Positions 27,535-32,551 are shown, counted from the first letter of the stretch. The stretch: 64,000 nucleotides of DNA from an uncultured Cytophagales bacterium (GCA_963849955.1 CAWKJU010000009.1:247531-311530); one strand, 5' to 3'. Program-made: numbers and translations. The notes: generated by a model not told the origin, from the letters alone.

Positions 27535-27570
27535 AAAAACCTCAATTCATAGCGAATTGAGGTTTTTAAT
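27535..27570. terminator. bidirectional terminator between TPR gene and rtcB
   Basis: The sequence aaaacctcaattc-atagc-gaattgaggtttt is an 11-bp stem with flanking A/T runs. Confidence 0.7.
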
Positions 27571-28955
27571 TATCCATTCTTTTTATTCCTTTTCCACGGT
27601 GCATTTTTCTGATAATCACCTGCCATAATAGACCCATAGGGTAGCACTTCATCAACTACTTCACCTAAACCAAATTCTTTCATTTGATTTCTTACAGAAG
27701 TTGCATCTTTATAGGCAGACGGTAATTCAGTGATATCAATTTCGTTTGAGAAAAACCGAATGTCTAATCCAGCCGTTTCTTCTTGGAAAACTGTTTCAAT
27801 GGTTTTACCCTCTTTTGATCTTCGGTGTTGAGTTCTGCTAATATTACGACCAGCTCCATGGGGTGCAAATCCTAAGTTAGAGGGAGTAGCTTTTCCACCA
27901 ACAATTAATACCGACTCTGCCATATTCAATGGAATTAAACGAGGACCTGTAACATCAGGCATAAATGAAGCACTCAACGGAGTAGCACCTTTTGCATGGT
28001 AAAATAGATCTCCATCCTTGAAAACGAAATTATGTTCGTTCCAATACCTATCTTCCACACTAATACCTACCACCTCAGCCGTTGCATTATGAATACATTC
28101 GTGGTTTAATTTAGTCCACTTTCTAATTAGCTGTAGTGCTTCCCAGTAGGTTTTACCTTCTTCAGTGTCAAATGGAATCCATGCATTATGTTTTAGCGTT
28201 TCATTTGATAAGCGTTGCCTAAACCGTTCCGCTATCTTCATACCTTTTGTATACAACTTTGCTCCCACCCCTCTTGAGCCATGGTGTGTAACCATCATTG
28301 TATTTCCTGTTTTCTTCGATTTACCCACAAATAGAAAATGATTTCCATCACCTTGAGTGCCTAAGTGTGCTCGCGCGACTTGTATCATGTTTTGATCGTT
28401 TAGTAATCTGTTTGCTTCAAACTCTGCTAACAATTCAGCGGGAAAACGAAATTGATTTTCTCGACTCCTACCACCAGGGCCAAAATGTGTAATCCTGTGA
28501 GCAGCATCCAAGACTACTTTGGGATCTACACGACCAAAATCCGACAACATGACTGAACAACAAATGTCTGCCGAGTGCATTCCAGGGTGAATAGCATTTT
28601 TAGTCACCACCACGCCCCCTACTGGGATAACACCCAAGGTACCTGTTGGACAAGCATCTGGCATAATTGAACCTGTTACAACTGTGGGCGTCTTCATTAA
28701 CTCCTTCATCGTCTCAATTACCTGAGAGACGTTACCTTCTTCCAATTCATTTTCGGCTTTAATATTCACGAAAAAAGGAGCTCCATCCTCATTTAAAGGA
28801 AGTTGAGCAGGTGCTCTAAACTGTTTCAAGTAATTTGCACGCTCCTCTCCTTCTAATTGATGTTCGTTGATATGTTCAATAGCTGTTTTAAACCATTTTC
28901 TGGGTTCAAAACCTAATTCAATTAATGTATTTCCAGTTATTATAAATTTTTCCAT
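27570..28955 (-). CDS. rtcB: RNA-splicing ligase RtcB (3'-phosphate/5'-hydroxy RNA ligase), paralog 1
   Basis: 461 aa. RtcB metal-binding/catalytic blocks are in order: [33 protein letters not shown], and [11 protein letters not shown] (catalytic His region). Confidence 0.85.
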
Positions 28956-28976
28956 TTTACTGTATATTTTTTTTCA

Positions 28977-29561
28977 CTACTTCCAAAGCTGCCACCATTT
29001 TTTGGTTGATATTTCTTCAATTATTTCTGTTTTTATATTAGTAGCTGCTTTCATTTCAAAATATGGAAACTTACTTATTTCGAACCCTGGCATTTTAGAC
29101 TCTTCAATAGTAATTCTTATCAATAATTCTAGGGCATATTTTCTTAGATCACTTTTTAATTTATCAATTGGATCATTATTTCTTGACCAATAATCAAAAA
29201 CACCACTGCCTAGATAATGTAGTAGAGTACATTTATCGTAATCCCAATCATTAAAGTACCCCAAAGCTTTAGCGTGTAAAGTATCCTCTTTACCAATTGC
29301 TAAGACAGACAAATACGCTTTCGAACGCCATAGCTTTAACTCAGCTTCATCAAGAAATGGAGTCACGATTTTTGTAAACTCATAAACAGCACCACTCCTT
29401 TTGTAGTCAAATGTAAACAGCGACAGATTTAACTCATTCTCTAAATCTTCAACTAACTCTGTTTGTGTATATAACCATGATTCAAATTCATCTATGGGTA
29501 TAGTTTCTGATATTGCCCCAAACAGATATTCCTTTAGTTCTTTCTTAATTTCCATACCCAA
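28977..29561 (-). CDS. hypothetical acidic protein co-transcribed with rtcB
   Basis: 194-aa ORF, 21 nt upstream of rtcB on the same strand, with no motif recognised. Confidence 0.4.
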   Translation of the reverse strand: MGMEIKKELKEYLFGAISETIPIDEFESWLYTQTELVEDLENELNLSLFTFDYKRSGAVYEFTKIVTPFLDEAELKLWRSKAYLSVLAIGKEDTLHAKALGYFNDWDYDKCTLLHYLGSGVFDYWSRNNDPIDKLKSDLRKYALELLIRITIEESKMPGFEISKFPYFEMKAATNIKTEIIEEISTKKWWQLWK

Positions 29562-30654: not shown

Positions 30655-31394
30655 TTTCTAAACAGCTTATTTAATTGTTCAGTTTTTCCTTTTGGTTCAC
30701 AGCCCATGTGGATTATCTTATCTTCTATTTCTAAAATGGTTTTTGATAAGTAGCTATCCACCTTATTAAATCGATTGACCTCCAAAGCTTCACCATGTTT
30801 AGATTTTAATGACAACATTATATCTACCCATTCAATTAGTTTTTCATCGGTTAACAAGGTTCTCAAAACACCAAATTCCATTGGCGGAACCTCGCCTGTA
30901 GCTACAATCCACTTGGCAGCTAATGTTGATCGAAGTACATAGAAATATTTTTTGAGTTTGACCTTTTCTCCCATCACATACGCCTTCATAAAATTCTTAC
31001 TAAGCGAAAGGTAGTGATGAACTCCTGACAAAGGTCTGTAATACTCCTTTTCCAAATGCAACAAGTTATTTTTGAAACCTGACACCTCTTTATATATTAT
31101 AGGTGACCGTAATTTCTCATATAAACTAGCATTAGAACCTCGGAACAAACGCATCGTTTTCCGCAATTCCCAGCCAGCAAAATCCAACACTGCTCCTACA
31201 TCGGTAATTGTGTCTTTATCATCATCAATTTTTAAATACCAAGCTTCTGGATGTTTGTAAATAAACCGGACATCATAGTCGCTATCTAAAGATGGGAATC
31301 CCCATGCTCTGGAGCCAGACTCGCAGGCATTTAGCACTTCTACATGGTGTTTCTCTTCTATTTCTCTAAGTTTATTAGTTATCTCCGCTCTCAT
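30636..31394 (-). CDS. minimal pol-beta-superfamily nucleotidyltransferase, paralog A (252 aa)
   Basis: Its signature ESGSRAWGFPSLDSDYDVRFIY is clearly paralogous to the downstream 350-aa protein. Confidence 0.6.
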   Translation of the reverse strand: MRAEITNKLREIEEKHHVEVLNACESGSRAWGFPSLDSDYDVRFIYKHPEAWYLKIDDDKDTITDVGAVLDFAGWELRKTMRLFRGSNASLYEKLRSPIIYKEVSGFKNNLLHLEKEYYRPLSGVHHYLSLSKNFMKAYVMGEKVKLKKYFYVLRSTLAAKWIVATGEVPPMEFGVLRTLLTDEKLIEWVDIMLSLKSKHGEALEVNRFNKVDSYLSKTILEIEDKIIHMGCEPKGKTEQLNKLFRKWILEH

Positions 31395-31450
31395 GTTATC
31401 TCTCTATTTAAGGACTTAGTCCAAGTGAACTAAGCCCAAGTTTAAACCAG

Positions 31451-32551
31451 TTAAGAACCTGTAAACAATTGCTTCATCTGACCTAAGATTTGACTCCCGC
31501 CAGACACTGTTATTTCACCCACTTTTTCAGCGACCTTTTCTACGTATTCCATTTCTTTTAACTTGAACAACATGGCGTTTTCTTCCATTAATTTAGCTGT
31601 GTTCAACAAACTCCTTGTAGAAGCAGTCTCTTCACGCCTCATGATTGTATTTGCTTGTGCTTTTTTCTCAGCAATTAATACTTGATTCATGATGTCCTTT
31701 ACTTCACCTGGTAAGATGATATCCTTGATACCACCGCTTAACACTTGTACTCCCAAGATTGCTGCGCTGTCACGAACAGTTTCACCAATTTCAATGGCCA
31801 ACTCTTCTTTACGAGCCATTAATTCATCTAAGGTTAAGGATCCAATCGACACTCTAATAGCTAATTGAGTAATAACATATAATTGTTTTTCAAATTCTTT
31901 GTTATTCGTCAACGCCTTCATCACGTCTGTCACTTTATATTGTGAGAAGTAATTTACTCGAATGGCTGCTTTGTCCTTTGTTAAAATTTCTTGTCCGGAA
32001 ACTTCCATTTGCTGAACTCTCAAATCCACTTTGTTTAACTTGATTTGTTCAGCAGTTTTCCAAAAGAAGTAGGTACCGGCTTCTAACATGCGCTCCACTC
32101 GACCATCGACTTCCATTATTGCTCGTTCATACGACTCTACTACGTAAACCCGGACATATTCAAAGATTTCTCTTCGTGCCAATAATGCTTTTGAGATGTT
32201 TTCAGTAATCTCTTTTTTACTTAAATCGATGCGTGTGAAAGAATAGTTAATTAACCCTTTCCAGAAAGCATATTTACCTGTTTTTAATACAGCCGTAAAT
32301 TTTCCATCGTTATATTGAATCACGATTTCATCGTCCTTTACTTCTACCACGGTAACTAATTGCTCAAACTGTTTATTCCTCAATAAGAGCGTTAAATGAG
32401 CTTGAGAACTTGCTATTGGAGTATCCATATTAAATAACACTTCAGTTTCATTAAAGCCTATCCAATACACACCTTCTGTTAAAACACGGTTTAAATCACC
32501 GTATTTATACACCATGGCAACTTTTCCTGCATTTACTCTTACTCTTTTCAT
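31451..32551 (-). CDS. SPFH/band-7 (stomatin/flotillin-like) protein
   Basis: 366 aa with an SPFH core (QEILTKDKAAIRVNYFSQYKV ... IRVSIGSLTLDELMARKEEL ... GVQVLSGGIKDIILPGEVKD) and a C-terminal coiled coil. It is the first gene of the rtcB cassette. Confidence 0.65.
   Translation of the reverse strand: MKRVRVNAGKVAMVYKYGDLNRVLTEGVYWIGFNETEVLFNMDTPIASSQAHLTLLLRNKQFEQLVTVVEVKDDEIVIQYNDGKFTAVLKTGKYAFWKGLINYSFTRIDLSKKEITENISKALLARREIFEYVRVYVVESYERAIMEVDGRVERMLEAGTYFFWKTAEQIKLNKVDLRVQQMEVSGQEILTKDKAAIRVNYFSQYKVTDVMKALTNNKEFEKQLYVITQLAIRVSIGSLTLDELMARKEELAIEIGETVRDSAAILGVQVLSGGIKDIILPGEVKDIMNQVLIAEKKAQANTIMRREETASTRSLLNTAKLMEENAMLFKLKEMEYVEKVAEKVGEITVSGGSQILGQMKQLFTGS

Follow-up and report, generated by a model that had tools for sequence, protein, structure and literature searches.

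The DNA analysed here, a stretch of 64,000 nucleotides from an uncultured Cytophagales bacterium (GCA_963849955.1 CAWKJU010000009.1:247531-311530; hereafter the window), carries a cassette of five co-directional minus-strand genes, which raises the question to what kind of system such a combination belongs. The genes encode an SPFH/Band-7 protein, two nucleotidyltransferases (NTases), a small acidic protein and the RNA ligase RtcB. An initial annotation had regarded them as a candidate novel RNA-repair or defence cassette that could not be mapped onto any named system. That view could not be maintained: RtcB with Band-7 and the tRNA-like b7a-tRNA or YrlA, as well as RlaP-type NTases with an RNA ligase, are already published predictions. 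The cassette is a Bacteroidota copy of a known type of Band-7/RtcB/RlaP RNA-repair module and not a new system. It is likely that the Band-7 protein, tRNA-like RNAs, RtcB and the two RlaP proteins make up a stress-inducible RNA-repair module, organised in two co-regulated transcription units.

Cassette genes and transcription units

A listing of the open reading frames (ORFs) of the window confirmed the five genes at the positions first assigned to them (Table 1), together with the peptide motifs that had been quoted and the 19-nt overlap of the NTase genes. The gaps from RtcB to SPFH are 21, 46, −19 (the overlap) and 56 nt. The terminator announced after RtcB was found as a hairpin between RtcB and a convergent TPR gene, and from the leader to RtcB the minus strand showed no terminator-like site. 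The genes had been read as one five-gene unit. They are real, but they probably do not form one operon, because the operator in the leader has an exact copy within the 46 nt that separate RlaP2 from the 194-aa gene. The cassette thus looks like two transcription units, each preceded by an identical palindrome.

Table 1. Positions of the features in the window, counted from its first nucleotide.
Feature	Position	Strand	Basis or remark
Hairpin terminator, 16-bp stem	27534-27568		3' of RtcB, common to convergent TPR gene
RtcB RNA ligase	27570-28955	-	PF01139, E 3.5e-37
Acidic all-helical protein, 192 aa (194-aa ORF 28977-29561)	28977-29555	-	Unnamed family
Operator 2, identical 19-nt palindrome	29576-29594		RlaP2/194-aa gap; head of unit 2; TTTG 29559-29562
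RlaP2, 350 aa	29602-30654	-	PF10127, E 2.7e-19, N-terminus only
RlaP1, 252 aa	30636-31394	-	PF10127, E 2.4e-69, model positions 1-248 of 249
SPFH/Band-7 ("slipin"), 366 aa	31451-32551	-	Pfam Band_7, E 6e-29
Third tRNA-like element, degenerate T-arm	32842-32911	-	Rfam tRNA 38 bits; partly conserved in L001
Permuted YrlA-type module (closing stem, T-arm, loop-closed acceptor, D-arm) and extra T-arm hairpin	32910-33028	-	Rfam YrlA, covariation
tRNA-like gene, near-canonical, 6-nt anticodon loop, no encoded CCA	33122-33191	-	Rfam tRNA 52.5 bits
Module A, GCACCGAAA...GUAGGGAAGCG invariant, then T-arm	33195-33300	-	nhmmer, covariation
Operator 1, exact palindrome TACGCAAAAAGACTGCGTA	33498-33516		Head of unit 1; minus-strand TTTG at 33481-33484, 13 nt later
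WYL + WCX + PhyH-type dioxygenase protein, probable regulator	34142-35872	+	Pfam; PADLOC WYL models
RtcB2-PrfH module: RtcB; RF-1-domain PrfH	41838-43235; 41191-41832	-	Known ribosome-repair module

For comparison with other genomes, a scan with RlaP2, one genome per species, gave 80 loci, all from Bacteroidota (the RlaP2-sampled loci; single loci are referred to by L numbers). The RlaP pair is present in all of these loci because they were sampled through RlaP2.

RNA ligase and nucleotidyltransferases

The RtcB assignment, made on the GDGNHF and HGAGR blocks, was borne out by Pfam (PF01139, 129 bits) and by the catalytic residues. Equivalents of P. horikoshii Asp95, Cys98, Asn202, His203, His234, His329 and His404 are all retained and lie, in the alignment, in the blocks DICC (Asp95/Cys98), GDGNHF (Asn202/His203), HHGSRG (His234), YHAKGAT (His329) and PHGAGR (His404). 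Enzymes of this family join RNA ends carrying a 3'-phosphate or a 2',3'-cyclic phosphate to 5'-OH ends. The cassette RtcB belongs to a divergent clade, 71-74% identical across Bacteroidota islands, and has 30% identity with the second RtcB of the window (RtcB2). At residues ~97-101 (28650-28670) it reads MPDAC, against MPDGH in P. horikoshii and MPDAH in RtcB2, a change from His to Cys near the active site.

Both NTases matched Pfam family PF10127 (RlaP, RNA repair pathway DNA polymerase beta family; "RNA ligase-associating Pol-beta"), RlaP1 over the full model with 234 bits against a cutoff of 23 and RlaP2 with 70 bits over the N-terminal core only. At family level (E 2.4e-69) this sets them apart from the aminoglycoside NTases, a clustering with which had been named at first as a refutation of the initial reading. 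Upon comparison of the two by BLASTP, 28% identity was found over 74 residues, and their clades aligned with an hhalign probability of 97.8% over 147 columns; by these comparisons they are ancient paralogs. The GS...DxD signature and the acidic residues downstream of it are near-invariant among 67 aligned RlaP1 and 77 aligned RlaP2 orthologs, the catalytic motif of RlaP2 being invariant across all 77. Because this signature is kept in both, RlaP1 and RlaP2 are predicted to be, probably, active enzymes. In 48 of 77 cases their genes adjoin or overlap, with 4 nt as the commonest overlap. An AlphaFold2 (AF2) model of RlaP2 (pLDDT 82) combines an NTase core with a beta-rich insert and a helical C-terminus. 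Sequence and profile searches with RlaP1 and RlaP2 gave no match in a PDB copy that lacks the PfRlaP crystal structure.

A soluble Band-7 protein

SPFH proteins had been introduced as membrane scaffolds, a description that does not suit the cassette protein, which has no hydrophobic segment. Its maximum KD19 value is 1.46, compared with 2.88 for the anchored SPFH protein at 25167-25994, and because of this low value it is considered to lack a transmembrane segment. Against the HflK/HflC models of NCBIfam it scored 24-52 bits, far under the cutoffs of 134-660. As judged from its sequence, the cassette Band-7 is a soluble protein and not a membrane SPFH scaffold of the HflK/C, stomatin or flotillin kind. 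At least 7,988 relatives were found, with the NCBI name "slipin family protein".

The Band-7 gene is adjacent to RtcB in the window, in 12 RlaP2-sampled loci and in three of the four loci that were sampled independently through Band-7. All four of the latter are RNA-repair contexts.

A second SPFH gene lies elsewhere in the window (24275-25994, plus strand), following a DUF2797 gene. Its product has an N-terminal membrane anchor and is an ordinary membrane Band-7 protein, seemingly unrelated to the cassette.

A leader with tRNA-like RNAs

The 1-kb gene-free stretch 5' of the SPFH gene carries several tRNA-like elements on the cassette strand. Conservation of this leader with locus L001 covers about 450 nt and is far better than that of the flanks. 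The "rearranged tRNA array" reported beside the cassette is indeed present (32840-33300), but it is more than a neighbour, being a conserved set of tRNA-like RNAs that belongs to the system.

An nhmmer search located the permuted module in front of Band-7 genes at other loci, and the topology of the module is that of the circularly permuted tRNA of the YrlA effector domain. In an alignment of 13 sequences, compensatory changes were present in 19 of the 25 pairs and 96.6% of the cells were paired, compared with 76.4% in shuffles, where none out of 500 reached the observed value, and only 42-50% in slid controls. A covariance model built from this alignment (R1) scored 111 bits at the window and placed the module upstream of 18 out of 18 Band-7 genes, from the RlaP2-sampled loci, L082 and the four Band-7-sampled loci. 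One to three copies were also found beside Ro60/TROVE genes in L004, L008, L010, L041 and L088. The Rfam YrlA match (32950-33014) reached 38.5 bits, under the gathering threshold of 69 (RF02553), and covers only model positions 23-86, which make up the tRNA-like domain. Judged by its topology and this score, the module works like YrlA but falls outside the curated family. A normal tRNA fold of 32916-32980, with acceptor pairing past T-arm 2, was also tried. This fold is not conserved in L001 or L060, for which reason the permuted fold is preferred, and the Rfam tRNA alignment of 32916-32980 contains no anticodon arm.

Weak R1 matches of 25-35 bits were observed at the junctions of adjacent true tRNAs in the arrays of L020-L025 and L042. 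They consist of the T-arm and acceptor of one tRNA followed by the acceptor and D-arm of the next. YrlA-type RNAs have been suggested to arise from dimeric tRNA transcripts, an origin with which these junction matches agree.

Two further elements of the leader were characterised. The tRNA-like gene at 33122-33191 was reported by ARAGORN as "tRNA-??? (ta)" with a 2-nt anticodon; it is conserved in L001 and, with a loop of six rather than seven nucleotides, it is not a canonical tRNA. It is a candidate for the published b7a-tRNA. Module A had nhmmer matches at L082:7786-7886 (E 6.5e-18), L083:496-594, L018:1997-2093, L010:5934-6016 and L008:6225-6326. Of its predicted pairs 14 out of 23 show compensatory changes, it accompanies Band-7 or Ro60 genes, and no Rfam family matches it.

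Relatives from Kordia, Tenacibaculum and Flavobacterium have up to about 30 canonical tRNA genes beside their RlaP/RtcB islands (L020-L024, L030, L042, L016 and L025; for example L023:11135-14380). This suggests that tRNA replenishment is combined with RNA repair.

Operator and probable WYL regulator

The palindrome TACGCAAAAAGACTGCGTA occurs exactly twice in the window, both times inside the cassette. In L001 a copy occupies the position of operator 2. Ten aligned sites are built alike, with an A/T-rich tract, the palindrome, 13 nt and an invariant TTTG, and the ATG of genes of the 194-aa family lies 3-4 nt past this TTTG. The palindrome was also considered as an RNA hairpin; this was rejected, the half-sites being invariant rather than covarying. 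Since only the spacer varies, the palindrome is taken to be a DNA operator bound by a protein.

The core pattern ACGCA-N7-TGCGT gave 33 matches in 28 of 82 loci, 31 of them intergenic. The gene downstream was RtcB (12), RlaP (4), a Band-7 leader (4), the 194-aa family (2) or Ro60 (1). A relaxed pattern was located 37-42 nt from the start of a divergent WYL gene in 13 loci, and the spacer tracks the type of WYL protein, AAAAGnn being present in 11 of 14 sites of the long WYL-PhyH type and an AAAW-type spacer in 30 of 46 sites of the short form. On these comparisons we infer that the WYL protein is an autoregulated regulator of both units and putatively binds the operator. A literature search gave no paper that connects WYL regulators with RtcB/Band-7 modules, although Burroughs & Aravind 2016 may do so.

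The distance between operator and WYL gene is 626 nt in the window, because a DUF559 gene (Vsr/MTES_1575-like endonuclease; 33569-34138, plus strand) sits between them. Such a gene was found at this place only in this window, and it seems to have been inserted into the divergent promoter region.

The fusion of WYL to a PhyH domain (Fe(II)/2-oxoglutarate dioxygenase) was present in at least seven loci (the window, L006, L026, L043, L056, L082 and L089). To our knowledge there is no precedent for a dioxygenase domain on a WYL transcription factor; the domain might modify or sense a ligand.

The acidic accessory protein

The fourth gene had been described as an acidic 194-aa ORF with no motif. 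The protein is acidic (net charge −9) and has no Pfam or NCBIfam match, but it most likely starts at ATG 29555 and thus has 192 aa, because the databases hold the 192-aa form and TTG 29561 lies inside the conserved, promoter-like TTTG. A word-indexed search returned only the protein itself and, in L001, one homolog with 65% identity, and an exhaustive HMMER search 124 relatives, 23 of them below 1e-10. Family members in repair islands, about 35% identical, lie between WYL-PhyH and Band_7-RtcB (L082), directly after an RlaP-RlaP pair (L083), between a WYL gene and Hen1-Pnkp (L084) and near Thg1 and a kinase (L085 and L086). On a metagenome contig of P0010 a member is found directly upstream of a gene for Barstar, an RNase inhibitor, which hints that the family could deal with RNase toxins. 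The 194-aa protein is a genuine, unnamed accessory of RNA-repair islands.

Conservation of gene content and gene order

ORF clustering of the RlaP2-sampled loci showed RtcB in 35 of 81, so that the linkage of RlaP to an RNA ligase extends beyond the cassette, WYL in 24 of 82 and Band-7 in 12. Other recurrent neighbours are TROVE/Ro60, a PNKP kinase-phosphatase, RNase T, R2K ATP-grasp and DUF434/DUF5616 proteins. Three further neighbour families resemble Pnkp, Hen1 and Thg1 by sequence, and Hen1 and PNKP_ligase were confirmed by Pfam in L084, where the Hen1-Pnkp pair adjoins RlaP.

Recurrence of the order NTase-NTase-RtcB, with or without SPFH, had been put forward as a test. The gene content does recur widely, but the exact order is kept only in the closest relative, L001. 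In L067 the order is SPFH-RlaP1-RlaP2-RtcB, while most other loci have SPFH-RtcB...RlaP1-RlaP2. Content that is kept while the order is shuffled points to a constant set of parts rearranged in modular fashion rather than to a fixed operon.

Comparison with known systems

The abstract of the 2016 study by Burroughs and Aravind reportedly speaks of "SPFH/Band-7 modules" with "a novel tRNA-like molecule".

The name RlaP was given by Burroughs & Aravind (NAR 2016) because of a linkage to RNA ligases, and the role predicted for the family is to put back, before ligation, the nucleotides that cleaved RNA has lost. The idea that the NTases remodel RNA 3' ends before RtcB ligation, after attack by a nuclease, therefore agrees with a role already proposed for the family. 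In vitro, two Pseudomonas RlaPs add 1-2 nucleoside monophosphates (NMP) to RNA 3'-OH ends, with a preference for damaged RNA, and RlaP is needed to recover the aminoacylation of over-damaged tRNA (PMC12776372). The combination of RtcB, Band-7 and the tRNA-like b7a-tRNA was likewise predicted in 2016, as quoted in bioRxiv 10.1101/312249, according to which Band-7 and Rsr contexts occasionally exchange b7a-tRNA and YrlA with each other. A literature search for b7a-tRNA gave no other paper besides this preprint, and Rfam holds no b7a-tRNA family.

The window resembles the Band-7/b7a-tRNA/RtcB system in having RtcB beside Band-7 and a tRNA-like RNA, with RlaP as the accessory NTase, and in the interchangeability of this RNA with YrlA and the Ro60 context. 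It differs from the system as quoted in the preprint in several respects. The partner RNA of Band-7 is a permuted YrlA-type module and not a canonical cloverleaf, several tRNA-like modules are present in one leader, RlaP occurs as tandem paralogs, a WYL(-PhyH) regulator and an operator stand before two units, and there is an extra 192-aa helical protein.

With the rtcB-rlaP-rtcA operons of Pseudomonas (Carruthers, Fatma & Huang 2025, PMC12776372) the cassette shares a PF10127 NTase beside RtcB and the proposed refilling, before ligation, of nucleotides removed by "smart" ribotoxins. Those operons have one RlaP, the cyclase RtcA and the sigma-54 activator RtcR, which has a CARF domain, whereas the window has two RlaPs and neither RtcA nor RtcR, but WYL, Band-7 and tRNA-like RNAs. 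The Rsr(Ro60)-YrlA/YrlB-RtcBA systems of Salmonella and relatives are similar in that a permuted tRNA-like RNA lies beside RtcB and a scaffold protein is paired with the RNA. In the window, however, the scaffold is a soluble Band-7/slipin protein and not a Ro60 ring, and the RNA has no Ro60-binding helix. The RtcB2-PrfH module, finally, is also an RtcB-centred repair module, with a copy 8.6 kb away (41191-43235). Its RtcB belongs to another clade (30% identity), its partner is a release-factor homolog, and it has no RlaP and no Band-7.

Proposed mechanism and alternative explanations

A mechanism can be proposed for the module. The divergent WYL regulator would bind TACGCA-N7-TGCGTA, predicted to overlap a Bacteroidota-type promoter of each unit, and upon sensed RNA damage it would release or activate transcription, as comparative genomics suggests. 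Unit 1 would consist of the ~0.9-kb leader with the tRNA-like modules, followed by Band-7 and the overlapping RlaP1 and RlaP2, all presumably co-transcribed. The permuted YrlA-type RNA, strictly adjacent to the Band-7 gene, may pair with a Band-7 oligomer, and the complex could support repair as a scaffold or cofactor, a role that has been proposed for Ro60-YrlA. RlaP1 and RlaP2, probably as a heteromer, would refill 1-2 nucleotides at the 3' end of a ribotoxin-cut and trimmed tRNA or rRNA. Unit 2 would supply the 192-aa helical accessory protein and RtcB, which would join ends with a 3'-phosphate or a 2',3'-cyclic phosphate to those with a 5'-OH.

A number of points weigh against this proposal. 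From gene arrangement and sequence we infer the regulatory role of the WYL protein, the co-transcription of unit 1, the pairing of the permuted RNA with Band-7 and the RlaP1/RlaP2 heteromer, as well as the order of action and the substrate of the enzymes. The exact gene order of the window is confined to L001. A promoter scan gave 17 sites where 22 were expected, but its sigma-70-type consensus covers sigma-70-type sites only and is uninformative for Bacteroidota promoters. The end chemistry is a further difficulty, as RlaP leaves a 3'-OH and RtcB needs a 3'-phosphate or a 2',3'-cyclic phosphate; no cyclase, kinase or phosphatase was found among the Pfam results for the cassette. The match to the b7a-tRNA of 2016, for which there is a candidate, is a putative one, drawn from a secondary citation and from what the abstract reportedly says. 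According to bioRxiv 10.1101/312249 the predicted Band-7/b7a-tRNA systems lack experimental validation.

The alternative that survives best is RNA surveillance or decay, in which a Band-7 ribonucleoprotein would capture misfolded or broken RNAs, like Ro60-Y RNA-PNPase, with RlaP tagging their 3' ends for exonucleases and RtcB being marginal; or else the tRNA-like RNAs would be decoys or sensors of anticodon nucleases, with cleavage products signalling to WYL. The interchangeability of the RNA module with the Ro60 context and the recurrence of RNase T-type exonucleases in related islands would suit this explanation. The mismatch between the 3'-OH product and the RtcB substrate would also be easier to accept if RlaP and RtcB do not act in sequence, and a sensing role has a parallel in RtcR, which according to the abstract of PMC7790460 senses tRNA fragments. 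It is, however, an RNA ligase that is the most constant protein partner of Band-7, RtcB being directly downstream in three of the four Band-7-sampled loci and an Rnl2-type ligase nearby in the fourth. Moreover, RlaP restores the aminoacylation competence of repaired tRNA in vitro, and the active site of the cassette RtcB is fully intact. We regard surveillance or decay as unlikely, with some weight left to it.

It is still more improbable that there is no unit beyond RtcB and RlaP, the leader being a decaying tRNA array and the SPFH, 194-aa and WYL genes unrelated neighbours in an island. The shuffled gene order, the many loci with the RlaP pair only, the true tRNA arrays that adjoin related islands and the conservation of the tRNA-like gene 33122-33191 in L001 only could be read in this way. 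Decaying pseudogenes would not covary, though, which disfavours a decaying array for a permuted module that has compensatory changes in most of its pairs and precedes every one of the 18 Band-7 genes. Identical operators head both units, the operator stands at a fixed distance from WYL genes, and the 194-aa family recurs in repair islands.

A defence module producing a nucleotide second messenger (CBASS/CD-NTase-like), with RtcB or SPFH as effector, had been suggested as an alternative and was not sustained. The GS...DxD signature is common to the whole Pol-beta superfamily and the neighbourhood is rich in defence genes, with McrBC and DUF559, but none of the five proteins had a PADLOC match, both NTases match PF10127 and not the CD-NTase families, and characterised RlaPs act on RNA 3' ends. 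In Foldseek searches with the RlaP2 model, cGAS and CdnC came out at E > 0.5 and a TM-score of about 0.13, and a signalling role is thus considered highly improbable. Against the PDB the same model matched only generic minimal NTases (HalB, KNTase, LinB and MNT, E ≥ 0.01); MNT-type antitoxins or aminoglycoside/lincosamide NTases with the 194-aa protein as a HEPN-like partner, to which the neighbours kanamycin NTase, LinB and MNT (E 0.03-0.5) could point, are equally hard to credit, these matches being weak (TM 0.2-0.3) and limited to the generic NTase core, against an HMM assignment to RlaP.

Neighbouring genes

The second RtcB, announced at ~8 kb, was found about 8.6 kb away, in the RtcB2-PrfH module (40499-43235, minus strand). 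This module has no copy of the cassette operator. Its RtcB and PrfH genes are followed by one for a highly charged 230-aa protein with no Pfam match, of which the same family is found 3' of PrfH in L008. A McrBC-family restriction component (43657-44901, minus strand) adjoins the module, and the stretch from 27 to 47 kb therefore resembles a repair/defence island. Between the WYL gene and the PrfH module (36061-40498, plus strand), a 462-aa ORF with no Pfam match overlaps the start of a 1030-aa WG-repeat (beta) protein. At 19292-20566 (minus strand) two adjacent ORFs correspond to the C-terminal (227-380) and N-terminal (1-225) halves of one pyridoxal-phosphate (PLP) enzyme of the Cys/Met-metabolism family PF01053, a split due to either a frameshift or a sequencing error.

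Meaning for RNA repair in Bacteroidota

As this type of system was predicted in 2016 and the biochemistry of RlaP was described in 2025, a claim of discovery does not stand. More tentatively, and with clear doubt, the locus may belong to a WYL-controlled regulon for RNA damage that is spread across the Bacteroidota and would be to RNA what the SOS response is to DNA. In this regulon the TACGCA-N7-TGCGTA operator would wire interchangeable RtcB, Pnkp/Hen1, Ro60, RlaP pairs and tRNA arrays. Damage would then be sensed, or repair hosted, by a soluble slipin cage with the permuted RNA, the refilling would fall to an obligate heteromer of RlaP1 and RlaP2, and the 192-aa protein would bridge the gap between 3'-OH and 3'-phosphate or neutralise a ribotoxin. 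None of these points was found described or tested in the literature searched.

The cassette is a compact and well-delimited example of a predicted system type. It supplies an exact operator, a candidate regulator, an RNA model supported by covariation, a soluble Band-7 protein, the RlaP1/RlaP2 pair and an unnamed accessory family as handles. With these, two questions become testable: how a slipin-type oligomer uses a tRNA mimic, and how the 3'-OH left by RlaP is reconciled with the 3'-phosphate that RtcB needs.

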